DNA from: an uncultured Bacteroidota bacterium | Lineage (GTDB): Bacteria > Bacteroidota > Bacteroidia > Flavobacteriales_F > PHOS-HE28 | Assembly: GCA_902826215.1 (NCBI GenBank) | Contig: CADEDY010000009.1 | Span: 52,304-116,303 of the forward strand | Direction of reading: 5' to 3' | Length of the DNA stretch: 64,000 nt | Part shown: positions 480 to 50,508 of the stretch, piece by piece | Layout: the number at the start of each line of letters is the position of its first letter | Position numbering within the stretch: the stretch's first letter is position 1 | Notes under the pieces: generated by a model | Told to the model about the DNA's origin: nothing | The model's input: the letters and a program-made list of their open reading frames with translations, nothing else | Database searches by the model: none | Translations under genes and position numbers: made by a program

Positions 480-2078
480 TCAATGTTGGACCGTGAACCG
501 CGTGGTGTGGACCTCACTACCATTATCGGTCCGGACGAAGTAGACACCTTCGTTCCATCGCCCGACATCGATCGCCTGGGGCGACCGGGTCGCGAATAGG
601 CGTTCACCTAGGGCGCTGAACACCTCGATGGATGTGCCGGGATCGATGTCTCTGATGTTCAGACGGGACGCAACCGGGTTCGGGAACACGATGGGGCCAC
701 CCTTCCCCGCAGGATCCTCTTCCATCCCCACCGCATTCCCGAATTGTACCGTTACATAGCGCGAGTCGGTCGTGCTCGTGTATGAGGTTCCGCTCACCAC
801 CACATCGCCGTATGGGTTCACCCCGATCGCATTGAACCGGTCGTCCATGCTTGATCCACCATCATAGGGTATGCTCCATTCCAACGTTCCCGAAGGAGCG
901 TACTTCAACACCACGGCATCGGTGGTGGTATTGCCCGGCGCTACCATGTATCCACTGATGAAGATGTTGTCGTTCGCATCGATCGTCATGGCCGTCGGCC
1001 AGGCCCCAAGACCGGAAGGGCCTTCGTAGTGCATGGTCCAGAGCACAGTGCCATCGTCGATGAGCAGGGTGGTGATGGAATGGCGCAAACTGCCGCTCAC
1101 CAGCTCGCGGCTGTGGATGACGGCAACGATCTTCCCATCGCTCAACTCACGCACGTCCACCGCGTCGTCATCCACGTTGCCGCTGCCGGCGTACAGCACG
1201 TTCCAGAGTTCCGCACCCGAGGCATTGCGCGCCACCACCACGGCATCGGTTGTTGTTGTCGTGGCACTGCCACAGGCGATCACACCATCGTTTGCCGTAG
1301 CAATGATGCGAGCCAGCTTGTCGGTCCAGCCGCTCACCTCAAATCCTTCATCCCACAGGCGCGTGCCATCAGCGGTGAACCGCACAGTGCCCATATCGAT
1401 ACCGCCACCGCCGCCCAGGTTCCACCAGTCGCCGCCCACGTAGATGTTCCCCGACGGCGATATGGCCACATCGCGCGCCACATCGTCCGAACTGCTCAGA
1501 GAGAAGGCGTCGTGCCACAGCTCGGTCCCTGCCGAATCCACCTTCAAAGTGTAACTGTCGAGGCCCATGCCAGCCGTGCTCGTGATGTATCCCGCCACAT
1601 ACGCATGGCCTTGCGCATCCACGACGATGCCCAAGGCCTGGTCGTATACATCGGCCATCGGGTATTGCTCATAGTTCTCCCGCCAGATCCTGCCGCCGCT
1701 GTTGTACTTGATCACCGCGAGATCTCCACCGCTGGCAGAGAAGTCGCCGCAGACGAACACGTTCCCCCAGGGATCCAGCGCCATGTCGGTGCCCTTGTTC
1801 GGAGTGTCCTGCGAAGGCCCGTACACATGGTCTGCCCAGAGCTGTGCTCCTGCTGCAGAATAGCGGATGGTCGTGATGGTGCCCTGCGGTGCGAGGTTCG
1901 TACTGGCTCCGGTCACGTAGATGCTGTTGTCCGGTGCGATGACCAGAGCGTTGGCTTCGTCTGTTCCCGGCAGCGATCCGTTGAAGAACGCTTCCCATGC
2001 CATTGCGGGTGGCTGCGCATGTGCGATCAGGTTGAGGACGACCAATGCGGCGAAGAGCAGGGGGTATCGGTGCTTCAT
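480..2078 (-). CDS. T9SS type A sorting-domain protein with SBBP-like beta-propeller repeats
   Basis: The N-terminus has a signal peptide, MKHRYPLLFAALVVLNLIAHAQ. The body carries repeated YVTG/YVAG...D..G-containing units. The C-terminal roughly 80 aa (PIVFPNPVASRLNIRDIDPGTSIEVFSALGERLF...GVYFVRT...) match the Por secretion tail pattern. The gene lies 4 nt downstream of the partial paralog on the same strand. Confidence 0.75.
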   Translation of the reverse strand: MKHRYPLLFAALVVLNLIAHAQPPAMAWEAFFNGSLPGTDEANALVIAPDNSIYVTGASTNLAPQGTITTIRYSAAGAQLWADHVYGPSQDTPNKGTDMALDPWGNVFVCGDFSASGGDLAVIKYNSGGRIWRENYEQYPMADVYDQALGIVVDAQGHAYVAGYITSTAGMGLDSYTLKVDSAGTELWHDAFSLSSSDDVARDVAISPSGNIYVGGDWWNLGGGGGIDMGTVRFTADGTRLWDEGFEVSGWTDKLARIIATANDGVIACGSATTTTTDAVVVARNASGAELWNVLYAGSGNVDDDAVDVRELSDGKIVAVIHSRELVSGSLRHSITTLLIDDGTVLWTMHYEGPSGLGAWPTAMTIDANDNIFISGYMVAPGNTTTDAVVLKYAPSGTLEWSIPYDGGSSMDDRFNAIGVNPYGDVVVSGTSYTSTTDSRYVTVQFGNAVGMEEDPAGKGGPIVFPNPVASRLNIRDIDPGTSIEVFSALGERLFATRSPQAIDVGRWNEGVYFVRTDNGSEVHTTRFTVQH

Positions 2079-2079
2079 G

Positions 2080-3702
2080 TCAATGCTGGTTGTTCAGTAC
2101 GGTAAGGTGCCCCGTGAGTGGATCCTGCTGCCCATCGACACGGACCTCGTAGTAGTAGGTACCATCGCTCACCCCGCCGGCCATCCAATCGTTGCGGTAG
2201 TTGACCGCCTCGAAGACCACTTGTCCCCAACGGTTGTAGATGCTGACGTGGTTGCTCTGGTACTCGATACCGACGATCACGAACGCGTCGTTCGAACCAT
2301 CGTTGTTCGGTGTGATCACGTTCGGCACCACGACTCCGCAGGGTGCCGTAACCGACACACTTGTGGTCGCTTGCACCCCGCAATCATCCGTAACGGTCAC
2401 GGTGTACAAGGCAGCATGGTCGGGAACGATGATGAAGGATTGCTCCGATCCCGTGTTCCACGCATAGCTCAGTGTGCCAGTACCACCCGTCGCGATGACT
2501 TCGAGATCGATGGATGCCCCGCTGCAATCGGAGACCGCATCAACCGACTCAAGCACAATGGGCGGCGCATCGGTGATGGTGACGCTCGCGCAAGCAGCCG
2601 CGCTCCCTCCGCACCCCCCGGGGATCGTGGCGCATATGGTAAGCACCTCCGGTCCTTCGGTCTCTCCGTCCGCCAAGAAGGAGATGGGGAAGCTCACGCT
2701 CATCTGTCCTTCGGCGAACGACACGCTAGTTGGTACGCCGCTCACATCCGCAGGCGCGAACGCATCACCGCTGATCTGGATGGGCACCGAGATGGCACCA
2801 GTGCTTCCGCTGCGTGTAAGCGTCACCGTCGCCTCATCGCACCCCTCCAATACGTTTGCGCCGCCCGTGGACGTGGTGATGGTGAGGTCCGCACCACTCG
2901 TGGATGTGAAACTGCCGCCGAGGATGAAGACACCGCTGTCCCAATTGGGATCGCCCACATCGCCGATGGCCAGCTTGATGTGGTAGGTCTGTCCGCACTG
3001 CACCTGCGCGCGTGCGCTCAGCCCGCGCGTGAAACCATCGAACTGTATGTAATAGTTGCTGTTGACGTACGGCGCGCTGAAGCCGTTGCCGTTGTCCTGG
3101 TAGTACAGCGCATTGCTCCCCGGGTGCACGGAGTTCACGCTCACATAGCTGAACGTGCCAGGCACCACGGCTAGGTTCACCGCATCGTTGTCGAAGGGCC
3201 CGAAGATGCCGGGGCCGCTAAGAAAGAAGCCGAAGGCGTCGTTGTACCCGGCGTTCACGTACTCCAGGTACTCTTCACTGGCGAAGGTGTACTCGAAGGA
3301 GATCGAGTCGCCGCTGGGAACGAAGTCGAATTCGATGATGGCGTTGTCCATGCACCAGTCACCGGCCACGTTGTTGAGGTCCTCGTCCCAGAGATCGTCA
3401 GTGAAGAGTTCAGAGAACCCGCTGCCGGTGTTGTTGGGGCCGAGGGCGACGTCGATACCTCCGGTGCACATCAGTAGTCCGCTGTCCAATTGCAGCACGC
3501 AGTCCGCGCCATCGAAACGCCCAACCTGGACGTTCGGTGAAGTGGCGGGCAGCCCATTGAAGGTGACGTTGCTCACCGTGACCCCGGGGCCGAGCAGCGT
3601 GTTCTGGACCACCTGTTCCGGGCTGAGGTTGCCGCTCAGCACCAATTGTGCGCGGCCGAGGATGGCGGCGCACAGTGAGACGACAAGGAGCATCAGGCGC
3701 AT
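2080..3702 (-). CDS. T9SS type B (gliding-motility-associated C-terminal domain) cell-surface protein, adhesin-like
   Basis: The N-terminus has a signal peptide, MRLMLLVVSLCAAILGRAQ. The N-terminal domain resembles a choice-of-anchor-type domain. The middle region looks Calx-beta/Ig-like. The C-terminus (CGVVVPNVITPNNDGSNDAFVIV...YNRWGQVVFEAVNYRNDW...GTYYYEVRV) is the characteristic type B / CHU_C sorting domain. There is a 1 nt gap to the upstream gene. Confidence 0.75.
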   Translation of the reverse strand: MRLMLLVVSLCAAILGRAQLVLSGNLSPEQVVQNTLLGPGVTVSNVTFNGLPATSPNVQVGRFDGADCVLQLDSGLLMCTGGIDVALGPNNTGSGFSELFTDDLWDEDLNNVAGDWCMDNAIIEFDFVPSGDSISFEYTFASEEYLEYVNAGYNDAFGFFLSGPGIFGPFDNDAVNLAVVPGTFSYVSVNSVHPGSNALYYQDNGNGFSAPYVNSNYYIQFDGFTRGLSARAQVQCGQTYHIKLAIGDVGDPNWDSGVFILGGSFTSTSGADLTITTSTGGANVLEGCDEATVTLTRSGSTGAISVPIQISGDAFAPADVSGVPTSVSFAEGQMSVSFPISFLADGETEGPEVLTICATIPGGCGGSAAACASVTITDAPPIVLESVDAVSDCSGASIDLEVIATGGTGTLSYAWNTGSEQSFIIVPDHAALYTVTVTDDCGVQATTSVSVTAPCGVVVPNVITPNNDGSNDAFVIVGIEYQSNHVSIYNRWGQVVFEAVNYRNDWMAGGVSDGTYYYEVRVDGQQDPLTGHLTVLNNQH

Positions 3703-4307
3703 GGTGGTGTTCTTCGAGAACGAAATTCACTGGATACCACAGGTCTACACCCTCCATGCTGCCGGGGCGGACAACGCCTGTGACGAATCGGGCAATACGA
3801 GGGAAGAACTGTTCGTCAAGGGGCGGATCGCACGCAACGTCCGCATTGGCTCCGGCAGCGTGGCCGGTATCCGTCGACACGCGCCGTGCATTCGGTGTGC
3901 GCGATTCCATTGCACCCGATGCTCGAAGCTCGTGCTCTTCGACATGTGATGGTCACGCCCAGTCCACTATACGTTGCTCTGATCTCGATGGGACATCAAG
4001 GTGTATCACAATAGTAATACCAGCGCATCGGTATCCCTGCGATGCGATAGGTCGGGCACGCGGTACTGGTCGCGAGGTCGCCGCGATCGGTCAGATCTTC
4101 GACCTCGCTAAGCCAGTTGATGAACATCCTTGGCTGTGATATCATGTTCATGAAGCGGTTGGCATAAGACAATCTGACGGAGCACGAACTGATGAAGTGG
4201 TCGAACGAGTACTTCGAGCTGATTTGAATCGTGCCAATGGCCACGTCGCGTCCACCTTGCAGCATCGTTTGGTGGAGGACCTTGGGTTGCTACGAACGCG
4301 TTGAATA

Positions 4308-6401
4308 TTACATCCGTACCATCACTTTCACCTGTGATCTTCTGCCGATCGTAAGTCGAATGAGATAGGGTGCCGCAGGCAACTTGCGCAGATCCAATTT
4401 TTGCACCACCTGCCCGCTATACTGGCTCGTCCAGGATGCGGTATGTAGCACGCGGCCGATGGCATCACACACTTCCATCGTGTGCAGTTCACCGAGTTCC
4501 GCGAAGTAGGAAATGTTCACCTCATCAGCGAACGGATTTGGCCAGATACTCAACGAATCGATCGGATCGGACGGCATACCGGGGCGCGCACAGCCATTCA
4601 CCAAAGCCGGTAGATGCTCATCCATCCATAAGGCGCGCGCCAAGATCCAATCCTTCACCTCCTCCACTTCACCCGCCCAAGTGCCCGGTGCGGGCGAAGG
4701 TTCGGGCCAGATCGCACGTCCGAGTGTTGGCCAGCGCTGGAAGTTGACTTCCTGTGCTGCCGCAATGGATGATGCAATGCTATCCACAATGGCCAGCAAA
4801 GCCTGCGTGGCGAGCACGTCGTTGCGCAGCTCGTCCCATCGACACCGCAGGCTATCGCGGTAGGAGACATCCTCAAGGAGCCTGGCCCACCAGAATGGTA
4901 CCTGCCTTCGGTCCTCCGGACAGGAGAAGCCGAATTCATAGGCCCATCCGGTCATATCGGTGGCACCGCAGAAATCTGCGTGGCCCCACGCGAGGTCCAT
5001 GTCCCAGAGCGGGCCAGCAAGCAGTTTCCCACCGTCCGCAGCGGCTTGTTTGTGCAGGAAGGCGCTGCGCCGGTAGCCATCCACGTTGCGGCCGAGCTCG
5101 GTGATGATGAAGTAGTCGATGAACGAGCGCATATCGATGTAGCGCTTGTAGCCGATGGCAGGATCCGTAAAGGTCGATGCGGCAAGTCCGTCTTCGAATT
5201 GGTCCATGAAGTCCTCGATGAAGTCGGCTTGCGCAGCATGCGGCGCCGAGGGGTACTCGAAAAGGAACCTGATCTCTTGGTCGCTGCTGGCATGCGGTGG
5301 CGGATGGCCGGAGATCCAGTGCGGAACGGGTGGTCGGTCCTGCCGGTCGATCTTCACGATGTAGCCGCCGCTCACCCCGGGCATCAACGTGTCACCATAG
5401 TTCAGCTTCGCGATGTCCACACGTTCGGTGCCGCGCTTGATCTTCTCGGTGAGCACGTACACACCTTGGTGTTCGCCATTGAGGACCAGGTCCACATGGC
5501 GGGTGCGCGGAGCGTATTGCCCCATGCGCCGGGCCAATTCGTAGCTGAACGCATTCCGCACAGCAGACTTGTCGAGGTAAACGGCATCGAGCACCCAGTC
5601 ACTCTCGGCAGGCATGCCCAGCAATGGTGCGTTGAGGTCCTCGCCAAGTGGATCGCGCAGTTCAATGGAATACGGTCGTTTCGGCTGATCCTGTGAACTA
5701 TGGCCGCGCCGCTCGATACCCACCGCACCGTGATAAACGTTCGCTTCGTCACTGACGTGATTGAGCATCCCCGGACCGTTGTCGATGATGCGCAAGCTCC
5801 CGGTCACCTTGCCGGTGTCGGGCACATGTGCTTGCGGCGTCTTGATCTCCACGAGTGGAAGCGTACTGCTGGTGAAGGGTTGATAGGTGGCAGGTGCATC
5901 ACCAAGGCGAATGGTCCAGTTCAATACGGCGCCACTGTCCGCGTACGGATCGGTGTCTTCCACCCGCAACCACCAGGTACCAGCAGCGAGCTGACCGTTG
6001 TTCATGCGGCCCAACTGACCGATGGAGGTGTGCGGTCCGGTGAACGGCGGTTCTCCGAACGGCACCCACGTCGCAGCCTCCGCCCGAAGGCATGTGTTCG
6101 TGAAGTGATCGGTATCATATCCCACCGCCGTGATCAACTGCACGGCTGTGCTGTCGGGTGCCACGAGCCAGATGTCGAGATCGCCGATCCACGTGTGTTC
6201 AACCGAAAGGCAGACTTCTTCAAGACCGAAGTTCACCGTGTCCATGGTGCCGGCATCCGTCGCGGCCACTTCGAGGGGGAACCACCCCAATGCACCGTTC
6301 CAGGGGATCGGTCCGCCAGCGCCTAGGTAGGTCTGTGCGCGTGTAGTGGTGGCACTGCTGATCGCAACAAGGATCGGGAACCAATGGCGTGCGCAGAACA
6401 T
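4308..6401 (-). CDS. CotH-kinase-family protein with a proprotein-convertase P-domain and a T9SS type A C-terminal sorting domain
   Basis: The N-terminus has a signal peptide. A P-domain-like segment is present (EHTWIGDLDIWLVAPDSTAVQL...GTWWLRVEDTDPYADSGAVLNWTIRLG). The central region is CotH-like (VLDAVYLDKSAVRNAFSYELARRMGQYAPRTRHVDLVLNGEHQGVYVLTEKIKRG...GGYIVKIDR). The C-terminus has a Por_Secre_tail (LSIWPNPFADEVNISYF...PYLIRLTIG...VKVMV). Its start lies 3 nt after the GT2 stop. Confidence 0.7.
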   Translation of the reverse strand: MFCARHWFPILVAISSATTTRAQTYLGAGGPIPWNGALGWFPLEVAATDAGTMDTVNFGLEEVCLSVEHTWIGDLDIWLVAPDSTAVQLITAVGYDTDHFTNTCLRAEAATWVPFGEPPFTGPHTSIGQLGRMNNGQLAAGTWWLRVEDTDPYADSGAVLNWTIRLGDAPATYQPFTSSTLPLVEIKTPQAHVPDTGKVTGSLRIIDNGPGMLNHVSDEANVYHGAVGIERRGHSSQDQPKRPYSIELRDPLGEDLNAPLLGMPAESDWVLDAVYLDKSAVRNAFSYELARRMGQYAPRTRHVDLVLNGEHQGVYVLTEKIKRGTERVDIAKLNYGDTLMPGVSGGYIVKIDRQDRPPVPHWISGHPPPHASSDQEIRFLFEYPSAPHAAQADFIEDFMDQFEDGLAASTFTDPAIGYKRYIDMRSFIDYFIITELGRNVDGYRRSAFLHKQAAADGGKLLAGPLWDMDLAWGHADFCGATDMTGWAYEFGFSCPEDRRQVPFWWARLLEDVSYRDSLRCRWDELRNDVLATQALLAIVDSIASSIAAAQEVNFQRWPTLGRAIWPEPSPAPGTWAGEVEEVKDWILARALWMDEHLPALVNGCARPGMPSDPIDSLSIWPNPFADEVNISYFAELGELHTMEVCDAIGRVLHTASWTSQYSGQVVQKLDLRKLPAAPYLIRLTIGRRSQVKVMVRM

Positions 6402-6404
6402 GGT

Positions 6405-8225
6405 TCAGAAGTGGAAGCCGTAACCGAAGAAGGTGCTTTGCATGCCGAAGAGGCTGAGCGAACCGAGTGCAAGCCCGAAGACCACAAGTAGGAAGATGAC
6501 ATAGCGGCCGATGCGCATCGCCATGTTGTCCCAGCCGAGCAAGCGCATGGTGGGCAACATGAGGAAGGCGAGGCACAGGCCCATGAACGATGGTTGGAAC
6601 GAAACGGCAGCCAGGTACGCGAAGCCCAAGCCGATGCACATTTCGATGAGGATCACCGCAGCACTGTCCGGATGGCTGCGGTCGATGAAACGCCTCCACC
6701 CGGCCTTGATGCCGCCGTTGGTGGTGGTGCGCTGGCGAGCACCCACGTCGCCCGTAACGAGGAACTGTGCCTTTCCGCTGAACAGGTAGGCCGCCACGCC
6801 GATGCTGCTCAGCGTCCCTAGCGCCGCGTACAAGGCCGTGCTCTGCGCAAGGAATTTCACAAGACGCAACGGGCGGCTCGCCAGCCCGATGATGAAGCAT
6901 AGGATAGGCGCGATGAGCGTGAGCAGCGTGATCAGGAAGAAATCGACGCTGTAGAGCGCGTTGAACGCGTTGAAGAGGCCCACGGTGTGGAAGGTGGTGG
7001 CGGTGCTCCCGAGCTCGAAAGTCACCACACGGTCCACACCGAAGTAGTAGGGCAGCGCGAGGTTGGCGTTCAACATGAACAGAAAGTAGAGCAAGGTGAG
7101 CGGTAGGTTGAGCGTTGGGAAGAGGATGTCGAGCTTTTCCGTGCGCGTGATGTTCTTGGAATCGATCAGCTCGCGGCCCATGCGATGAAGGAATTCGCAG
7201 GTACCGCGGGTCCATTTCATATGCCGGATGCGAAAGGCACGCACCGTTTCAGGGAACTGTTCGAAGCAGGTGACATCGGACACGAAGCGCCCACGGTAGC
7301 CCAGCTCCCTCGCCCGGATGGCGAAGCCGAGGTCCTCGCTCACGATCTCAGGAAAACCGCCGATCGCCTCCCAGGCCTTGTGCCGCAAGAGGGCACCGTG
7401 GCCGAGGAACATCACGAAACCATAGTCGTTGCGCAGCGGTTGGTACCATTCCCAATGCAGGTCGATACCGATCCCCATGTCGCGGGCGAGTTTGGTGGGT
7501 GCCTCCGGATCGGCCTTGTGGTTCGCCTGTGTGAAGCCGCAATGTGGGTCGGCTTCCATGATGGGTACGAGCTTGCTGAGGAAGTCGCGCGGCAGGATCT
7601 CGTCCGCATCGGCGATGGCGAAGTACTTCTCCCGCACCACCGTGGCCAGTGCGTGGTTCAAATTCCCGGCCTTGAAGGCGCGCCGGTCGATGCGGCGCAC
7701 GACACGCACTTGCGCAGCGTGCTTGGCGGCGAAGGCGTCCACACGCGCTTTGCATGCCGGATCACTGCTATCATCAAGGATATAGACCAGGTACGCCGGA
7801 TAGTCCTGTTCCACACAGCTCTGCAAGCTGCGTTCGCTGATGTCGTTGCAGGTGGTGTATAGGATCGCGACAGCTTCCTGGCACGTGGGAGCGAGCGCTG
7901 CGGTGGCGCGAATGCCGGCGATGTTGTCGCGCCGGGTGCGACGGTACCACCAGGCGAAACCCACGACGCACAGGTTGTAAATGCCGTACAGCCAAGCGAA
8001 ACAGATGAAGCCTGTGTAGAAGAGGAGCACCAGACGCATCGGCCAGTCGTAGCCGTAGTTGGTGAGGTGGAGCAGGCGCGGACCGAACCAGAGGAGCGAT
8101 AGGCCCCAGACGGAGAACACAGTAATGAAGAGATGGGGTTTCGGTCCTGCGGTGCGTGCTGTTATCTCGGTGTTCGCCGGGGCCAGTGTTGCTTCCGCGG
8201 TGAGGTCTTGTAAATGGTGTCGCAT
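6405..8225 (-). CDS. Polytopic family-2 processive beta-glycosyltransferase (synthase-type GT2)
   Basis: The catalytic core carries DDSSD, DAD and a Q/RxxRW-like motif (FRIRHMKWTRG). It is flanked by two N-terminal and at least four C-terminal transmembrane helices. No PilZ domain is present. Confidence 0.75.
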   Translation of the reverse strand: MRHHLQDLTAEATLAPANTEITARTAGPKPHLFITVFSVWGLSLLWFGPRLLHLTNYGYDWPMRLVLLFYTGFICFAWLYGIYNLCVVGFAWWYRRTRRDNIAGIRATAALAPTCQEAVAILYTTCNDISERSLQSCVEQDYPAYLVYILDDSSDPACKARVDAFAAKHAAQVRVVRRIDRRAFKAGNLNHALATVVREKYFAIADADEILPRDFLSKLVPIMEADPHCGFTQANHKADPEAPTKLARDMGIGIDLHWEWYQPLRNDYGFVMFLGHGALLRHKAWEAIGGFPEIVSEDLGFAIRARELGYRGRFVSDVTCFEQFPETVRAFRIRHMKWTRGTCEFLHRMGRELIDSKNITRTEKLDILFPTLNLPLTLLYFLFMLNANLALPYYFGVDRVVTFELGSTATTFHTVGLFNAFNALYSVDFFLITLLTLIAPILCFIIGLASRPLRLVKFLAQSTALYAALGTLSSIGVAAYLFSGKAQFLVTGDVGARQRTTTNGGIKAGWRRFIDRSHPDSAAVILIEMCIGLGFAYLAAVSFQPSFMGLCLAFLMLPTMRLLGWDNMAMRIGRYVIFLLVVFGLALGSLSLFGMQSTFFGYGFHF

Positions 8226-8234
8226 GGCCCGGGA

Positions 8235-9614
8235 TCAATTGGTGTGGTGGTGATGCTGGAGGGCGCTGAACCGCAAGCGTGCGCCGAAGGCAACGGAAGT
8301 GAGTTCGTTGAAGAAGCCGTTCTCGTAGCGTACCGATGCCATCAACCATACCGGTCGGCTCACCGGGAACAAGCCAGTGACAAAGGCGCCGCTCATGCGC
8401 TTGCGTTGCTGCACACCGCCGTCAGGGTTGATGCGTGATGACCCGATCACATAGCCGGCATTCACTTCGTACCCTCGTCCTGGCGTGATCTTCGTCGCAA
8501 GCACAAGACGCCGCTCGCTCACTTCGCGTTGGGGTGATGCGAACAGCAGCATCGGTTCCAGCGCAACGGATCGTCCAACGCGGTAGCTGCCGCCCAGGTA
8601 GTACAACCAGTCGCCGGGCAAGCCGCTGCCCTTGGCCAACTGCACGCCGCCTTTTACCGACAGGTCACGGCGGAAGAAGAGGACATGCTCGGCGCGCAAG
8701 GCCCGTTGCGTCGGTGCATCGTCGAGCAATCGGAACGCGCCTTCGAGCAGGGTGCCATGATGTTTATTCCACTTGTGGTAGGCACCGAACGAGACCACTT
8801 GTCCATTGGCACTGCGGCGCAGCAGGTCCGTGTTCTCGATGCTGAGGGAGCGGTCGTACCGAGCGTGTGCCCGCCATCGGTCGCCGAACATGCGTGTGAT
8901 CTGGATGAGTCGCAGGCCGTTGCCCCGCAGTCCGTCCACGTTCGATGGTCCGGCCCACACATCGAGCTCCATTTCCGAGGCCTCGCGACGTAACGCATCC
9001 AGACGCTCCCGTGGCAATGATTCGTTCGGGAATCGTGCGGCAGCTTCTTCATAGTACTTTGCAGCTTGGCGATGATCGCCCCTGCACTTCGCTGCGTCGC
9101 CCATGCCGACCCATGGTTCCAAAAGCTCCGGATGCTCTGCGTGCAATGCTGCGAAGCGCTGGCCAGCATCGGCGCACATGCCCGCCCAGAGCGTCGCGTA
9201 TGCCATACCCATCCGCGCGTCGAGGTTGGTACTATCGAGCACGAGCGCGGCCAGGAAACGTTCACGTGCCTTGCTGTGCTCGCCCGCCCATGCGTACGTA
9301 TAGCCGAGGCCGTTCAGCGCTGCGACATTCCCGGGGTCGGTGCGGAGCAGGATGGTGTAAGCGCCCACGGCATCATCCGTGCGACCGAGCCACGCGTTCA
9401 CCTCCGCGAACTCGCGCAACGCGACCCTGTCGTCCTGATGTTCCAACAACCATCGTCTGAAATCGTCGACCGCATGGGTCAGATCTCCCCTGTCCCGGTG
9501 TTGGCGTGCGGCATCAAGCGTATTGGTCTGGGCCAATAGTGCAACGGCAAGCGCCATGGCGAACAAGGCCAAGGCCAAGCGGAGCGAGATCGTGGTGGTC
9601 CTGTAGGGTCGCAT
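8235..9614 (-). CDS. TPR-repeat protein with a C-terminal outer-membrane beta-barrel-like domain (YaiO/PgaA/BcsC-like exporter candidate)
   Basis: A signal-like region is present (MRPYRTTTISLRLALALFAMALAVALLAQT). TPR-like helical repeats follow (LGRTDDAVGAYTILLRTDPGNVAALNGLGYTYAWAGEH...). The C-terminal half has the alternating beta-strand character of a porin and ends ...VAFGARLRF. The gene lies 9 nt upstream of the GT2 gene. The start is placed at an internal Met; the track ORF extends to 9662. Confidence 0.6.
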   Translation of the reverse strand: MRPYRTTTISLRLALALFAMALAVALLAQTNTLDAARQHRDRGDLTHAVDDFRRWLLEHQDDRVALREFAEVNAWLGRTDDAVGAYTILLRTDPGNVAALNGLGYTYAWAGEHSKARERFLAALVLDSTNLDARMGMAYATLWAGMCADAGQRFAALHAEHPELLEPWVGMGDAAKCRGDHRQAAKYYEEAAARFPNESLPRERLDALRREASEMELDVWAGPSNVDGLRGNGLRLIQITRMFGDRWRAHARYDRSLSIENTDLLRRSANGQVVSFGAYHKWNKHHGTLLEGAFRLLDDAPTQRALRAEHVLFFRRDLSVKGGVQLAKGSGLPGDWLYYLGGSYRVGRSVALEPMLLFASPQREVSERRLVLATKITPGRGYEVNAGYVIGSSRINPDGGVQQRKRMSGAFVTGLFPVSRPVWLMASVRYENGFFNELTSVAFGARLRFSALQHHHHTN

Positions 9615-9855
9615 GCTCGTGAGTTGAGCATGCAAGTGAGTGGATCGTCGTATCAGGCCCACTGTCGAGGATGCCGGAACGGTTGGCGGAGCGGACCAAA
9701 CGGGCGATCCATTGGATGAACTCTTCAGGCCCGAGCGAACATCTACGAAGCACTGTGATGAAGTGGGATCCGGCGTTGCGTGCGGCCCCTCGACCTTCTT
9801 TACAAGGCCCGTCCGAAGTAGTGACGTGGGCTTGCTTGCTGCTCTATCGTTGTGA

Positions 9856-10446
9856 TCACCGCGCCAGCCGCCCGAAGTACAACGAGTCCAGGAAGGTGCC
9901 GTTCCAGAAGATGTTCTCCTTGAAGTGACCCTCCTGCACGAAGCCGTTCTTGACTAGAGCACGGATCGAGGCGGTGTTCTCGGGTCGTGTGATCGCCTCG
10001 ATACGATGCAAGCCTAGCGTGCTGAAGCCACAATCGACCGCAGCTGCGATCGCTTCGCTGATGAGGCCCTTTCCCCAGTGGTCGTGGGAGAGCATGTACC
10101 CAAGCTCGGCATAGTGATGGTCCTTTATGAAGCGCCAAAAACCGATGAGGCCGATGAAGGTATCGTCGCCCTTCTGCGTGATGGCCCACTGCACGGCATC
10201 GTTCGCGGCCACCGTGTTGGTGATCAGTTCGATCAAGGCCTCCGCATCTGCCTTGGACGTCGCCAAGGGTCGGTTCACATGCTGCATCACGTGTGGGTCT
10301 GAACGCAAGGCGAAGACCTCCGCAACATCCGATGGACGAAGCTCGCGCAGAACCAGCCGTTCGGTGGTGAGCACGGGGAAGGTCTGGAGGTCGAGGGTGA
10401 GCATGGGTGGTTCAGCAAAGGTCGATACGGAAACACGATGTAGCAT
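9856..10446 (-). CDS. GNAT family N-acetyltransferase (RimJ/RimL-like)
   Basis: The N-terminus reads LTTERLVLRELRPSDVAEVFALRSDPHVMQHV. A coenzyme-A-binding region HRIEAITRPENTASIRALVKNGF is present. Confidence 0.8.
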   Translation of the reverse strand: MLHRVSVSTFAEPPMLTLDLQTFPVLTTERLVLRELRPSDVAEVFALRSDPHVMQHVNRPLATSKADAEALIELITNTVAANDAVQWAITQKGDDTFIGLIGFWRFIKDHHYAELGYMLSHDHWGKGLISEAIAAAVDCGFSTLGLHRIEAITRPENTASIRALVKNGFVQEGHFKENIFWNGTFLDSLYFGRLAR

Positions 10447-10524
10447 TCACATTTCCGTTGCAGCCCATGTGGGTTCTTCAGCCACTGCTTGCAGAATCCA
10501 CCTTTCACAACCTACATTCACCGG

Positions 10525-10710
10525 ATGCTAACCCCTACCCGGCTGCGCACGTTGTTGGTAGTGCTGATCGTATTCATCATGCTCAGCTGCACGGCATCAG
10601 CTATTCTCGGTCTGCGTGGTGGCCACACCGCGCGAGCGGCGAGCACCTTCTTCGCTGGACTGACCTTCTCGATCCTGTTCTGGATGCGCTTGCCGAAGAA
10701 GAACGCCTAG
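10525..10710 (+). CDS. Possible small two-helix membrane protein (61 aa)
   Basis: This is the internal Met of track ORF 10489-10710 and encodes MLTPTRLRTLLVVLIVFIMLSCTASAILG...TFFAGLTFSILFWMRLPKKNA. Third codon positions are GC-rich. It sits in the divergent GNAT/VOC intergenic region. No similarity-based support is available. Confidence 0.3.
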   Translation: MLTPTRLRTLLVVLIVFIMLSCTASAILGLRGGHTARAASTFFAGLTFSILFWMRLPKKNA

Positions 10711-10815
10711 CCAACTGTCTTTTCCAACGTCCGCTGCAGGGGCTCATGACCGTTCCCGGTTCTGATCTTGCGGGTTCCGAATGCATCATTCATCTTTGGG
10801 CGATTCTCTACTTCC

Positions 10816-11172
10816 ATGCTCACCGCCGTCCACCCGAAACTTCCCATGCGCGATAGGGCCAGGACCAAGGTCTACTACACGGAGCAGCTCGGCTTCACGG
10901 TCTTCGGCAATGCCGACCACGATGGCTATTTGATGCTCGAACGGGACGGCCTTCAGATCCATTTCTTCGAGCACAGGGACCTCGATCCGAAGGAGAACTA
11001 CGGGCAAGTGTACCTGCGCACCGACGACATCGAGGTGTTGTACCGATCGTTGGTGGAACGCGGGGTGGCGATCCACCCGAACGGAGTACTCAGCACCAGA
11101 CCATGGGGCCAGAAGGAATTCGCGCTGCTCGACCCGGATCACAATCTGTTGACCTTCGGGCAAACAGCGTGA
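10816..11172 (+). CDS. VOC family protein (glyoxalase / bleomycin-resistance fold)
   Basis: The sequence KVYYTEQLGFTVFGNADHDGYLMLERDGLQIHFFEH...ALLDPDHNLLTFGQ is typical of a VOC beta-alpha-beta-beta-beta module. An internal Met was chosen as the start; the track ORF begins at 10768. Confidence 0.7.
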   Translation: MLTAVHPKLPMRDRARTKVYYTEQLGFTVFGNADHDGYLMLERDGLQIHFFEHRDLDPKENYGQVYLRTDDIEVLYRSLVERGVAIHPNGVLSTRPWGQKEFALLDPDHNLLTFGQTA

Positions 11173-25929: not shown

Positions 25930-25986
25930 CAGGGTTCGTCCATTGGTACCTGCTTTGGCCTACTGGACCTTTGTGATCAAAGGATC

Positions 25987-26973
25987 ATGGTCATGCGAAA
26001 ACAACTCCTAACAACACTGCTACTTGGTTCAACACTGCTGAACCACGTCAAGGCCCAAGAGGTCTGCGATCCCATCGTCATCGAGCGGGTGCAGTACAGC
26101 GCGGTGTATTCGAACTACATCGAGGTGCTCGCATACGTCACCAACTCCGACTGTATCGATTACCCCTCTTTCATTCTGCTGAACGACCAAGGCGATACGC
26201 TTGCGGTGGAGGCCACGGACTCCTTCTGCTTGAACTTCGGAACGGCTTCGGCGCACTACTTGGCCGTTCGACCCGAAGCGCAGATCCCAACAGGTTCCTT
26301 CAACACTCGATTGGATCTGTACTCGGGGTTCGGGGCATCCTTGGTCTGTTCGTGGGACCTGAGCGATGTTGCCTTATGTCCGACGGAACCGTGTACGCAA
26401 GCGGAAGTCTACCTGACCAACACCGGTCAACTGGAGACCTTCGAGGCCTACTGGTGGATCTATGATAGTGGAACAAGTGAGCAGATCGCGAACGGGAACT
26501 TCCTCGCTGGTGAAACCGCCACGAACTTCGATACCACCTGCTTGGCACCGGGCCATTATGTGATCGAGTTCTCTCCCTTTTCCCCCATCGACGAGGAGTA
26601 CGTGCTCGGCATCACCAACAATTGGCAGTACTCCATCGGAACCAACGTTGCGCAGCAAGGGGACACTACACCGCTCGATCTGGTCTTCTCTTGGTACGAA
26701 GCTTGTATCGACCTCGGAAACTCGATGAATGAACCATCATCGGAGAATATCCGCATCACCCTACCGAACGACATGATCCAATTGAATGCCCTCAATGGGC
26801 GAGCACTCGGTAGGATATCGGTGCATACGCTGGATGGTCGGCTCGTTGAACAACGATCCTCCTCTTCCAGCAGCGCTTCGCTTTCAACGGACGGGCTCGC
26901 CGCTGGTATCTTCATCATTCAAGCGGTCAATACTTCGGGTGATTCCTTCGTGCAACGCATCTTCATCCCCTGA
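25987..26973 (+). CDS. Hypothetical T9SS type A sorting-domain protein
   Basis: A signal peptide is present (MVMRKQLLTTLLLGSTLLNHVKAQ). A C-terminal Por tail is present (ITLPNDMIQLNALNGRALGRISVHTLDGRLV...GIFIIQAVNTSGDSFVQRIFI). Confidence 0.65.
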   Translation: MVMRKQLLTTLLLGSTLLNHVKAQEVCDPIVIERVQYSAVYSNYIEVLAYVTNSDCIDYPSFILLNDQGDTLAVEATDSFCLNFGTASAHYLAVRPEAQIPTGSFNTRLDLYSGFGASLVCSWDLSDVALCPTEPCTQAEVYLTNTGQLETFEAYWWIYDSGTSEQIANGNFLAGETATNFDTTCLAPGHYVIEFSPFSPIDEEYVLGITNNWQYSIGTNVAQQGDTTPLDLVFSWYEACIDLGNSMNEPSSENIRITLPNDMIQLNALNGRALGRISVHTLDGRLVEQRSSSSSSASLSTDGLAAGIFIIQAVNTSGDSFVQRIFIP

Positions 26974-26976
26974 ACC

Positions 26977-27924
26977 ATGAGCGAGAACAAGAAGCGAGTG
27001 GATGCCGCAGGAAAGTTGGATAGGAGGCACTTCCTCCAGGCTGGATCGCTTTTGGGGCTAGGTTCCTTGCTATTGACCAACAAAGTCTTGGCTGGCACTG
27101 CGGACACCAAAGGTGATTGTGCACCGACCACGGATGACATCCTTGGCCCCTACTATCTCCCTGGATCGCCGAATACCTCCATGGTCGCGCAGGAAAGCGA
27201 AGTGGGTACACGCTTGTTCCTGAGCGGTACGATCCTCAGCAACGATTGCCTCACGCCGGTTGCCGGTGCCAAGATCGAAGTGTGGCAAGCGAACGATGCG
27301 GCGGTGTACGATACCTCGCAGAACTTCAACCTGCGTGGCACGATGTACTCCGATGAGAACGGCCTCTATGCTTTCGAGAGCATTGTTCCAGGCGCCTACC
27401 TCAATGGCAGTCAATACCGACCGAAACACATCCACTACAAGGTGACCAAACCGGGCTTCCCGGATCTTGTGACGCAGCTCTACTTCGAGGGAGACCCGTA
27501 CATCGCTGCCGACCCGTGGGCATCTCAAGCAGATGCTGCCTTGCGCATCATTCCCTTGGCGAGCATCGGCGATGAAGCAATTGAAGGTCAGTTCGACATC
27601 GTGCTAGATGGCTTCACGTCGATCAAGCCGAACCGCTTCGGCTTGGATGGCGATGTACTGCCGATCCATCCCAACCCGATGCGCGATCTGGCCAGCATCC
27701 ACTTCAACGTCTTCCGGGAAGCACGGGTGGAAGTGGTGATCACCGATACCGATGGACGGGAGATCGTGACCTTGATCAACGCCACCAAACCGCAAGGCAG
27801 ATACACCGTGCAGTGGGATGGTCAAGCCGGAGGGTATGGCGGGGCAGTGGCATCAGGCACCTATCTCGTTCATCTGCGCATGAACGGCCAAGTGGTCAAA
27901 AGCCAGCGGATCGTGCGGCAATGA
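26977..27924 (+). CDS. Intradiol ring-cleavage dioxygenase-like protein with an N-terminal Tat signal and a C-terminal T9SS sorting domain
   Basis: A twin-arginine motif is present (DRRHFLQAGSLLGLGSLLL). The dioxygenase core reads ILGPYYLPGSP...AGAKIEVWQANDAAVYD...RPKHIHYKVTKPGFPDLVTQLYFEGDPY. The C-terminal Por tail reads LPIHPNPMRDLASIHFNV...GTYLVHLRMNGQVVKSQRIV. The gene lies 3 nt after the preceding T9SS gene. Confidence 0.65.
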   Translation: MSENKKRVDAAGKLDRRHFLQAGSLLGLGSLLLTNKVLAGTADTKGDCAPTTDDILGPYYLPGSPNTSMVAQESEVGTRLFLSGTILSNDCLTPVAGAKIEVWQANDAAVYDTSQNFNLRGTMYSDENGLYAFESIVPGAYLNGSQYRPKHIHYKVTKPGFPDLVTQLYFEGDPYIAADPWASQADAALRIIPLASIGDEAIEGQFDIVLDGFTSIKPNRFGLDGDVLPIHPNPMRDLASIHFNVFREARVEVVITDTDGREIVTLINATKPQGRYTVQWDGQAGGYGGAVASGTYLVHLRMNGQVVKSQRIVRQ

Positions 27925-48624: not shown

Positions 48625-50322
48625 CTACTCCAGGATCAAGCGCGCAACCGCACGTCCCTTCTCGCTCTGGATGCTGAGCAGGTACATACCGGGTGCTTCG
48701 CCGCGCAGGTCAAGCACATACTGCGCGTTGTTGGTGCGGTAGGTATCGAGCACGCGACCCGATGCATCCGTCAAGCTCATCACCGTGCTGCCATGGCCTT
48801 CAAGACCGATCCGGAAGACGCCCACACTCGGGTTCGGTGAAGCGTTGAGTTCGGTGGTGCCGTTCTCGCGGATGCCGATGGTGGACGCATCGATCATTTG
48901 GATACCCAGACTGGAAACGGCACCTCCGACAAAGCCCAGGAACCAACCGGTATCACCTTGGTGTGGATCCACGGGTTGGTCGTAGATCTCTTCGTGGGTG
49001 CTGTAGTTGATGTCTTCGTTGTGACCGAAGAAGACCCCGGTGTTCAAAGTGTTGACGCAGATCAAATAGCGCAAACCATCCTCCAACACCACGGGCTCAT
49101 CGAAGGCGACATAGGTGGTCACGAAGTTCCCGGTATCGGCAATGAAGTGTTCTTGGGAGTGGATCTGCAGCAAACTGGCGAAGGCGAAACCCGGATCGGA
49201 GACCACATCGAAGGCATCTTCCCACTGATACACATGGCTGATCATGAGTTCGTCCTCCAAGTCGCCTGGATCCTGGATGGAGGCGTAGAAGTGAATGCCA
49301 TCCACGGCGGTTCGGCTGCCGTTGTCGTTGCGGAAATGCAAGCAGGTCTCGTAGCTCGTGGACGCTGGTGAAGGCTGTATGCCGATGGTGGTGATGGGGA
49401 TACCCGTTACCGCGTCGCGAGGAACCGCGGCGTAGATGGAATCGGAGGCGAAGTTCACCGTGAAGGAGTTGTCGGGCGAGTGCTGCTCAGTACCGTCGAA
49501 CAGCGTATTGTAGGTGAGCGTGTAGTTGCCGCTCCAAGAAGCTTGATCCAGCGGTGGCAGTTCGATGAAGGCACTGTCACCCGGCTGAATGGCGAGCGGA
49601 TCGGACACTTCGCTGTAGAGCGATGTACTGCCGTTCAATACGGTAGCACTGAGCACTGCGCCGGTCTGCAGCTCGGTGCCGAAGTTGTGCACGTACGCAC
49701 CAATGCGCACACTGTACTCACCGGGGTTGGCGGCCAACCAGGTGGGCATGGACATGGAAGGTGGTAATAGGATGCCGAGCTTGTTGAAGCCGAGGTCGGC
49801 GGCATAGTATCCGTTCTTATTCCCAAGTAGCACTGTGACCGGGCCATCGGCCATGCCAGCGCGGATCAGTGCACCATCCACATCGCTGATCTGGAATACG
49901 GGTATGGTGACCTGCGGGCCGGTCGTACCACTGCCCATTTCAGCCGGTGCACCAGGCACATTGTTGATGATGAGCACTGCGATGGCTCCAGCGTTCTGGC
50001 AATTCAATGCCTTCAACGAGTAGTTGCATTCTCCACGATAGATCAAGGCCACCTTGCCGCTCACGGTGCTGGAGTTGATCACGGCTTCGCAACACAGGCT
50101 GTCCATATCGGTGGTGGCATCCACCGCAAGCGCGAGTTCACCGATCACCCGGTTCTCCACCAAGGTCATGTCCGGCGTGGCCCAGCCGGCAGGAGGATCG
50201 GGGTCAGCCCACGTGTGTGCGTAGGCACCTGCAAGATCCGTTGGTGAGAGTACGTCCATGGTCACTTGGGCGTACGTGAAGCTGCCGAGCAGCACGGCGA
50301 ATAGTGTTGTTGTTTTCCTCAT
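48625..50322 (-). CDS. T9SS type A sorting-domain protein with a PA (protease-associated) domain
   Basis: A signal peptide is present (MRKTTTLFAVLLGSFTYAQ). A PA-like segment is present (GKVALIYRGECNYSLKALNCQNAGAIAVLIINN). The C-terminal Por tail reads LNASPNPSVGVFRIGLE...GMYLLSIQSEKGRAVARLIL. The start is the internal Met of the track ORF. Confidence 0.7.
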   Translation of the reverse strand: MRKTTTLFAVLLGSFTYAQVTMDVLSPTDLAGAYAHTWADPDPPAGWATPDMTLVENRVIGELALAVDATTDMDSLCCEAVINSSTVSGKVALIYRGECNYSLKALNCQNAGAIAVLIINNVPGAPAEMGSGTTGPQVTIPVFQISDVDGALIRAGMADGPVTVLLGNKNGYYAADLGFNKLGILLPPSMSMPTWLAANPGEYSVRIGAYVHNFGTELQTGAVLSATVLNGSTSLYSEVSDPLAIQPGDSAFIELPPLDQASWSGNYTLTYNTLFDGTEQHSPDNSFTVNFASDSIYAAVPRDAVTGIPITTIGIQPSPASTSYETCLHFRNDNGSRTAVDGIHFYASIQDPGDLEDELMISHVYQWEDAFDVVSDPGFAFASLLQIHSQEHFIADTGNFVTTYVAFDEPVVLEDGLRYLICVNTLNTGVFFGHNEDINYSTHEEIYDQPVDPHQGDTGWFLGFVGGAVSSLGIQMIDASTIGIRENGTTELNASPNPSVGVFRIGLEGHGSTVMSLTDASGRVLDTYRTNNAQYVLDLRGEAPGMYLLSIQSEKGRAVARLILE

Positions 50323-50508
50323 GGGAGTTGGTCGATCGAGTTCATCTGCGAATTGACCACACACAGGGATGAACTGTGCTACCTCGGGTGATGGGCCGTT
50401 ATGGTGGTGATGGGTCGTGCGGATCTTCCGAATGGAACAGCTCATCACAGGAGGCCGAGCCTGTAACGCGATCGGATGCTGTCGCCCACTAAGAACCGTG
50501 GCACCGCT

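Follow-up and report, generated by a model that had tools for sequence, protein, structure and literature searches.

A conserved pair of synthase and barrel genes in Bacteroidota with the features of a minimal polysaccharide secretion module, followed in one lineage by a CotH gene

We analysed a stretch of 64,000 nucleotides (here called the window; contig CADEDY010000009.1) from an uncultured member of the Flavobacteriales, of which CP064979.1 represents a close relative, and focused on three closely spaced minus-strand genes at positions 4308-9614. Gene 1 encodes a protein with tetratricopeptide repeats (TPRs) and a predicted beta-barrel, gene 2 a membrane-embedded glycosyltransferase of family 2 (GT2), and gene 3 a CotH kinase-fold protein with a type IX secretion system (T9SS) sorting domain. 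We consider it probable that genes 1 and 2 form a minimal, hitherto uncharacterised polysaccharide module of the synthase-dependent type, belonging to Bacteroidota, and that gene 3 is a CotH gene acquired in one lineage, which lies outside this core. The module is distinguished from known systems by its predicted 14-stranded barrel, an altered QxxRW motif in the synthase, and the absence of both a domain for a nucleotide second messenger and accessory enzymes.

The two-gene unit emerged from a survey of 80 species-level genome loci having a GT2 at 52-60% identity, 72 of which contained enough upstream DNA. In 72/72 of these loci (viewed also by tblastn), which come from at least five families, the GT2 gene had an open reading frame (ORF) with the barrel domain as its immediate upstream neighbour on the same strand. 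The carriers belong to the Saprospiraceae, Lewinellaceae, Chitinophagaceae, Cyclobacteriaceae and Flavobacteriaceae. The surroundings of the pair were variable: the upstream flanking genes differed among the loci and represented many families, and the first downstream genes fell into 41 families. No gene for sugar-nucleotide synthesis, and none for a deacetylase, a hydrolase or a co-polymerase, was consistently linked to the pair in the surveyed loci. A third conserved member was also sought on both sides of the pair, and was rejected since the neighbours there are of many families. The conserved unit is genes 1 and 2 only. It brings together a predicted outer-membrane barrel and periplasmic TPR domain, encoded with a synthase, which is the combination expected of synthase-dependent secretion. 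The domains, the predicted folds and the strict pairing thus agree with the first-pass annotation, which had described a TPR-barrel protein and a polytopic GT2 as the minimal pair of this type.

Some lineages showed variations on this pair. The barrel partner of several Flavobacteriaceae is only about 300-370 amino acids long and has few or no TPRs (L001:6840-7958, L027:5137-6042, L029:7009-7935, L038:7049-7960 and L044:7049-7960; loci are designated by L numbers), and the barrel is therefore the obligate element, while the TPR part seems dispensable in some lineages. At 7 of 52 loci, the barrel gene has, immediately upstream and in the same orientation, genes for a Reg_prop/Y_Y_Y histidine kinase and a LytTR response regulator (L010:751-4394; likewise L023, L037, L045, L047 and two more), which are possible regulators of the module in the lineages concerned. 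The pair was also seen, with a GT2 at 54-60% identity, on short contigs binned as Thermoanaerobaculia (L078) and Myxococcales (L080); this occurrence outside Bacteroidota reflects either mis-binning or horizontal transfer.

Gene 2 had been annotated as a 606-residue membrane GT2 with D, DxD and QxxRW-like motifs, of which the D and DxD motifs are present. The protein matched Glyco_trans_2_3 of Pfam (E=1.5e-22) along with related GT2 models. The GT2 family shows very strong conservation: among the matches listed, the best 120 homologues share 55-93% identity with the window protein, nearly all of them 55-61%, and the alignment of the window GT2 with 48 homologues has a mean column identity of 66%. 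The acidic motifs DD151-152, DAD206-208 and SED296-298 were invariant across 49 GT2 homologues. The QxxRW position is occupied by R334-H-M-K-W338, on an interface helix just downstream of the catalytic domain, where the tryptophan and a basic residue are retained and the glutamine is not. This RHMKW motif aligns with QRGRW of BcsA and with RDRRW of OpgH, and has the first-position arginine in common with the latter. Four of its five positions were invariant among the same homologues, and M336 was nearly so. The C-terminal end of the family, past the last transmembrane helix, is the motif FFGYGFHF (6405-6431), in which seven of the eight residues are invariant (F599-F600-G601, G603 and F604-H605-F606) and Y602 is nearly invariant.

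We further examined a confident AlphaFold2 model of the GT2 (predicted local distance difference test score, pLDDT, 83; predicted template modelling score, pTM, 0.83). The model has two N-terminal transmembrane helices, a GT-A domain, interface helices, a C-terminal transmembrane bundle and a periplasmic beta-hairpin. The best match found by Foldseek in the PDB was BcsA (E=5e-16; template modelling score relative to the query, TMq, about 0.5; about 600 columns), and further top matches were the Chlorella virus and Xenopus hyaluronan synthases, a cyclic beta-1,2-glucan synthase and the plant CesA. As judged from the model, all the best structural matches are membrane-integrated processive synthases that translocate their polymer. 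Such a fold suggests that the gene 2 product would both polymerise and translocate.

Judged by the curated sequence models, the protein falls outside all the named families. On the NCBIfam models, the scores of the GT2 were 65.5 bits against a cut-off of 699 for CelA (TIGR03030), 44 against 992 for a second Bcs model (NF008558), 51 against 422 for PgaC (TIGR03937) and 47.8 against 328 for the best MdoH model. When compared with hhalign, the probabilities were 97% over 243 columns for E. coli PgaC, 95% for OpgH (glycosyltransferase domain only) and 70% over 101 columns for NfrB (GT-A part only). The likeness to these three E. coli proteins is at the level of the GT-A superfamily only. Neither a PilZ nor an MshEN domain was detected in the GT2 by Pfam. 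The first-pass annotation had stated that the locus fits none of the cellulose, poly-N-acetylglucosamine (PNAG), alginate and Pel systems and that PilZ, BcsB and PgaB/PgaD are absent. The scores far below the cut-offs, the lack of a PilZ match and the absence of such neighbours are in accord with both statements.

The product of gene 1 was modelled as a signal helix followed by 11 TPR helices and 14 beta strands (mean pLDDT 78, above 90 in the TPR part). It contains about 5.5 TPRs, of which the Pfam TPR models match residues ~76-204 only. The earlier description as a signal-peptide TPR protein with a porin-like C-terminal half thus holds, the predicted structure being more than a TPR protein. 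The names listed beside the barrel model were Omp33, PorV and CymA. Word-indexed searches for proteins resembling the barrel partner had returned 5 and 2 matches, as TPR words saturated the candidates, and the model was therefore built from 6 sequences. When 1.84 billion representatives were searched exhaustively with phmmer, only 119 clusters were obtained, most of them of 410-460 amino acids with the barrel at the C-terminus.

We also evaluated whether the barrel could be assigned to a family. When 18 barrel domains were compared with Pfam and NCBIfam at E<=10, no barrel family was found, and there were only scattered matches of single members (E>=0.013) to unrelated families. Ten distant relatives of gene 1 gave no match in the barrel domain to these databases at E<=0.01, and a profile of the domain had no match among PDB sequences. 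The hhalign probabilities of this profile with the E. coli proteins YaiO (0.7%), PgaA (1.3%) and NfrA (0.1%) indicated no relationship. The Slam barrel, DUF560, was not matched by the barrel domains even at E<=10, and TPR_Slam weakly matched 28/37 gene 1 homologues in the TPR part only. On the NCBIfam models, the gene 1 protein scored 28 bits against a cut-off of 367 for PgaA (TIGR03939) and 21.5 against 858 for BcsC (NF008520). The comparison with PgaA, BcsC and YaiO made by the first-pass annotation therefore stands as a description of the architecture; as a family label it was rejected by the profile searches and hhalign. The barrel protein of the window ends in the clade-specific SALQHHHHTN (8235-8270), with four histidines after the usual ...LRF strand, and the homologues outside the clade terminate at RF(R/E)(K/R).

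The layout of the three genes was as previously described, on the minus strand with spacings of 9 and 3 nucleotides. The junction of genes 1 and 2 reads TGA-tcccgggcc-ATG (with an AAT codon before the stop) and that of gene 2 and the CotH gene reads TGA-acc-ATG (with a TTC codon before the stop). The ORF of gene 1 extends to a GTG at 9662; however, since an identical annotated database protein (P0121) has 459 amino acids, the ATG at 9614 was taken as the start.

From these features, a pathway for the polymer can be proposed. The inner-membrane GT2 would polymerise sugar from a cytoplasmic nucleotide-sugar and would pass the chain along a transmembrane channel of its own, like BcsA and hyaluronan synthase. 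The periplasmic TPR domain of the gene 1 protein would take up the chain, which would then cross the outer membrane through the 14-stranded barrel of the same protein. Since no sugar-nucleotide or modifying genes are linked to the pair, the substrate is likely to be a housekeeping UDP-sugar. The CotH protein would leave separately by the T9SS, to the cell surface or the medium. If it is tied to the module, it would most plausibly phosphorylate or bind a component of an extracellular matrix built on the glycan.

The domain calls for gene 3 (CotH, P-domain and T9SS C-terminal domain, CTD) all lie above the gathering scores, as the first-pass annotation had led us to expect. The CotH match spans profile positions 1-322 of 322. 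The sorting domain was recognised by PF18962 (Por_Secre_tail; E=7.6e-7, 29.8 bits against 27) and, in agreement, by TIGR04183 (25.2 against 23), and the N-terminus, MFCARHWFPILVAISSATTTRAQ, is signal-peptide-like as judged by sequence. With these two elements, the gene 3 product is a predicted type A cargo of the T9SS. N439-x-D441 and W466-D467 were invariant in 28 CotH homologues. D441 and D467 align with D224 and D247 of B. cereus CotH (5JD9), which have the same 23-residue spacing as D228 and D251 of B. subtilis CotH. We take D467, the equivalent of D251, to be the metal-binding residue. Mutation of D228 and D251 inactivates the B. subtilis kinase (PMC7821199). Judged by these residues, the CotH domain seems capable of catalysis. 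Pfam detected no carbohydrate-binding module in the protein. In the papers searched, no glycan-kinase activity is reported for CotH, and we found nothing relevant on CotH with the T9SS or in Bacteroidetes.

How tightly is gene 3 connected with the pair? We observed that a CotH gene directly follows the GT2 gene only in the window and in L081, L082, L099 and L166 (five contigs, with a GT2 identity of at least 74%). The GT2 identity to the window is 93% for L081, 95% for L099 and 74% for L082; L166 is CP064979.1. Only one of the 80 genome loci (L034) had a CotH homologue no more than 8 kb from the GT2 gene, and there it lay 4.4 kb away on the opposite strand. Conversely, when we examined 80 metagenome loci with a CotH homologue (32-46% identity), 78/80 were without the module, and the two that had it (L099 and L153) belong to the lineage of the window. 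These counts contradict the earlier view of CotH as an integral part of the system, since the family at large lacks this synteny. CotH is a lineage-specific third cistron, in an operon that is conserved in one clade, and lies outside the core machinery. Because the spacer to gene 2 is just 3 nucleotides, gene 3 is almost certainly co-transcribed with the pair.

Whether the presence of CotH behind the pair has a meaning is a question on which the evidence is divided. Neutral capture, in which a CotH gene landed behind the pair in the ancestor of the clade and is read through from the promoter of the pair, unrelated to the glycan, is in our estimate an evenly balanced proposition. It would account for the absence of CotH beside the module in 79/80 species-level genomes and for the CotH loci that have no module. 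T9SS cargo genes are also dense, with six in the 64 kb of the window and a share of about 10% of its genes, and the CotH protein evolves more quickly than the GT2, with 56% identity in L082 as compared to 74%. On the other hand, the window, L081 and L166 have unlike flanks on both sides of the trio, which has nevertheless stayed together as a block, with the 3-nucleotide spacer kept down to 74% GT2 identity. A lineage-specific functional link is therefore possible. Neutral capture also has to contend with the independent recurrence of CotH next to exopolysaccharide (EPS) synthases, both in the Pel loci of Gram-positive bacteria and in sfz clusters, and with a further such adjacency in L093/L094. 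We hold a functional tie between CotH and the glycan to be a tentative proposal, somewhat less probable than its absence.

The arrangement in L093 (7001-13678; also in L094, from one metagenome population) involves a homologue with P-domain, CotH and CTD at 36% identity, near a separate synthase. It is encoded 770 nucleotides upstream of a GT2-GH2 fusion protein of 1294 amino acids, in which a membrane GT2 synthase domain with a weak Cellulose_synt match is joined to a GH2-type TIM barrel. This is an independent case of adjacency between a CotH gene and a synthase gene.

We also examined which genes occupy the position of CotH elsewhere. The gene directly 3' of the GT2 gene on the same strand encoded a large type A T9SS cargo in 20/72 loci, often with gaps of 9-14 nucleotides, as compared to a background rate of about 4% of the genes in the flanks. 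When counted by family, which lessens the effect of shared ancestry, same-strand T9SS cargo made up 5/41 downstream families (binomial p ~0.03); on either strand the count was 8/41. The majority of the cargo in this slot is of a single family with the domain order GSDH-Ig-PA14-SdrD_B-CTD, and the others, unrelated to it, were a choice-of-anchor-I/phytase-like protein, an M4 peptidase and an unknown protein of 1357 amino acids, to which CotH adds another. There is a weak indication in this that the slot cargo acts on or with the exported glycan.

These cargo families bear on the original proposal of the first-pass annotation, that the three genes are one novel secreted-glycan system in which the surface CotH serves specifically to modify or anchor the polymer. 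We regard this proposal as improbable. The tight spacing and co-orientation, the retention of the trio on five contigs from the clade, the intact catalytic aspartates and the filling of the same slot elsewhere by cargo of five unrelated families speak for it; the conservation of the module without CotH in all other lineages, the lack of a detected carbohydrate-binding module and the lack of a reported CotH glycan-kinase activity speak against it. A broader form, in which the synthase/barrel module and the T9SS are functionally coupled, the slot cargo binds, modifies or is retained by the glycan, and CotH is an extracellular kinase on polysaccharide or matrix proteins, appears more doubtful still. 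Least probable of all is that the pair does not export EPS, with the GT2 making a periplasmic glucan in the manner of OpgH or a glycolipid, or with the TPR-barrel protein serving as a Slam-like translocon for surface proteins: NCBIfam MdoH models do align over GT2 residues 73-479, transmembrane helices included, the RHMKW motif begins with arginine as in OpgH, the GT2 has a Glyco_transf_21 match, and a TPR part with a 14-stranded barrel is the Slam architecture, weakly echoed by the TPR_Slam matches, but the MdoH- and Slam-type scores are all far below the family cut-offs, the DUF560 barrel is not matched, the best structural matches of the GT2 translocate polymers, and an obligate pairing of inner-membrane synthase and outer-membrane barrel defines export systems.

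Several points weigh against our preferred reading, that genes 1 and 2 are an export module with a lineage-acquired CotH gene behind them. Domain content, predicted folds and strict pairing are directly supported, while polymerisation, translocation, export and phosphorylation are deduced from fold, motifs and synteny. The QxxRW motif is altered, and the module has neither a c-di-GMP receptor nor a co-polymerase. The barrel model rests on an alignment of 6 sequences (barrel pLDDT 47-85, pTM 0.49), and known EPS porins have 16-18 strands as against the 14 predicted here. An Rfam scan of 3500-11000 found no riboswitch or other RNA. As for CotH, an extracellular kinase needs a source of ATP, and the dense T9SS cargo in the window means that a cargo gene beside the synthase could be there by chance. 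Finally, the Gram-positive Pel loci encode a polyphosphate polymerase and a DUF4956 protein together with CotH (PMC7112168), and both are absent here.

The features of the locus and of its surroundings are collected in the table. A scan of 3600-10000 for sigma-70 promoters and terminators gave no more hits than expected from shuffled sequence, and was uninformative for a genome of Bacteroidota. An ORF of 89 amino acids at 3996-4265 on the minus strand, between the CotH and CHU_C genes, has no family match, and is identical in metagenome contig L153. The genes for the Calx-beta/CHU_C and SBBP proteins (480-3702) were not kept beside the trio in L081 or L166. The upstream GNAT gene, the 89-residue ORF and the downstream CHU_C and SBBP genes were considered as members of the operon, and were rejected since they are not conserved in L081/L166.

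Table. Coordinates of the three genes, their domains and the T9SS cargo genes (window positions, except where a locus is named)
Feature	Position	Strand	Basis or remark
Gene 1: putative outer-membrane export protein, 459 aa (amino acids)	8235..9614	minus	signal peptide + TPR + predicted 14-stranded barrel
Signal peptide of gene 1, residues ~1-28, MRPYRTTTISLRLALALFAMALAVALLAQ	9531..9614	minus	translation; hydrophobic segment residues 9-27
Periplasmic TPR domain of gene 1, residues 32-211, 11 helices	8982..9521	minus	AlphaFold2
Beta-barrel domain of gene 1, residues 214-450, 14 strands	8265..8975	minus	AlphaFold2; no Pfam/NCBIfam family
Gene 2: putative inner-membrane processive GT2 synthase/translocase, 606 aa	6405..8225	minus	Pfam, AlphaFold2, Foldseek
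GT-A catalytic domain of gene 2, residues ~119-322, with DD151-152, DAD206-208, SED296-298	7260..7871	minus	BcsA alignment
Gene 3: predicted T9SS-secreted P-domain + CotH kinase-fold protein, 697 aa	4308..6401	minus	Pfam
Proprotein-convertase-type P-domain of gene 3, residues 63-165	5907..6215	minus	PF01483, E=8e-8, 32.7 bits vs 21
CotH domain of gene 3, residues 229-593	4623..5717	minus	PF08757, E=6e-59, 200.6 bits vs 23.8
Type A T9SS C-terminal sorting domain of gene 3, residues 619-693	4323..4547	minus	PF18962
Calx-beta protein with type B CHU_C sorting domain	2080-3702	minus	
SBBP beta-propeller protein with type A sorting domain	480-2078	minus	1 nucleotide from CHU_C gene
Three further ORFs, each carrying a type A T9SS sorting domain	25930-26970, 26974-27921, 48628-50508		CTD profile from CotH homologues
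Downstream T9SS cargo at other loci, examples	L010:7785-10781, L023:7993-11055, L056:9764-13279, L019:4833-10520, L030:3822-7028, L076:1842-5915, others		

To our knowledge, almost all known synthase-dependent EPS systems (cellulose, PNAG, alginate, Pel and Nfr) come from Proteobacteria. The module described here would be a compact two-gene version, widespread in Bacteroidota and especially in the Saprospiraceae and Lewinellaceae that are common in activated sludge, with a smaller, unannotated barrel of 14 predicted strands and without a recognisable regulator or co-polymerase. Identification of its polymer would bring one more matrix component to light in a phylum of ecological importance, and the barrel domain would gain a family definition. 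Although confined to an uncultured lineage, the CotH trio offers a simple three-gene setting for the role of secreted CotH kinases beside EPS loci. If CotH does act on polysaccharide or matrix, this would be the first defined role of a CotH kinase outside spores and fungi.

With regard to known CotH proteins, the spore-coat Ser/Thr kinase CotH of Bacillus (5JD9/5JDA) belongs to the same Pfam family, and both essential aspartates are conserved. However, the similarity is local and only about 20-25% (PDB E=4e-4). The Bacillus protein acts in the mother cell, as opposed to the T9SS export predicted here, its substrates CotB and CotG are absent, and the protein of the window has the P-domain and CTD as extra modules.

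CotH genes beside synthase-dependent EPS loci have also been published (PMC7112168, PMC12345266, PMC8250860), and the statement of the first-pass annotation that such an arrangement is undescribed was too strong. In streptococci, clostridia and bifidobacteria, CotH-like genes adjoin pelDEADAFG (PMC7112168); S. intermedius shows reduced Pel levels and aggregation when SIR_1594, which encodes a secreted CotH-like protein, is deleted (PMC12345266); and Sfz6, an SH3-CotH protein, belongs to the sfz stalk EPS cluster of Zetaproteobacteria (PMC8250860). As in the window, a secreted CotH protein is encoded contiguous with a glycosyltransferase-based EPS cluster in a non-sporulating bacterium. The differences are in the phyla, in the synthases (PelF of family GT4; a BcsB-like protein with an MshEN-GT2) and in the fused domains, which are FN3 and SH3 there and the P-domain and T9SS CTD here. 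Our literature search yielded no paper dealing with T9SS export of CotH proteins or with the barrel and GT2 module of Bacteroidota.

With regard to the pair itself, the Pga system has a similar layout of a TPR-porin (PgaA) and a GT2 synthase (PgaC), but neither a PgaB deacetylase nor a PgaD neighbour is present here and the PgaA profile is not matched by the barrel. OpgH/MdoH differs in that the MdoH score is far below the cut-off and no OpgG-like neighbour occurs at the locus. The Bcs system is nearer: the predicted fold of the GT2 is closest to that of BcsA (with sequence similarity at E=1e-9 over residues 182-368), and the TPR and barrel partner is analogous to BcsC. Here, however, there is no PilZ domain, no BcsB-like neighbour at any locus and RHMKW in place of QxxRW, and the barrel is predicted to have 14 strands rather than 16.

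The small EPS system NfrB/NfrA/YbcH of E. coli consists of a GT2 synthase and a TPR/pore outer-membrane protein in one operon (PMC8669469, PMC8669472). It shares with the pair, as predicted here, an inner-membrane GT2 of the processive type, an outer-membrane protein in which a signal peptide and TPRs are combined with a C-terminal pore, and genes that are adjacent or overlapping. It differs in the reversed gene order, with nfrB before nfrA, in the size of NfrA (990 amino acids) and in the gating of NfrB by c-di-GMP through a C-terminal MshEN domain, which the GT2 here lacks; the homology is limited to the GT-A fold, and the locus has no YbcH homologue. Judged by sequence profiles, the module falls outside the Bcs, Pga, Nfr and Opg families, and NfrB/NfrA/YbcH is its closest analogue in the logic of the pair.

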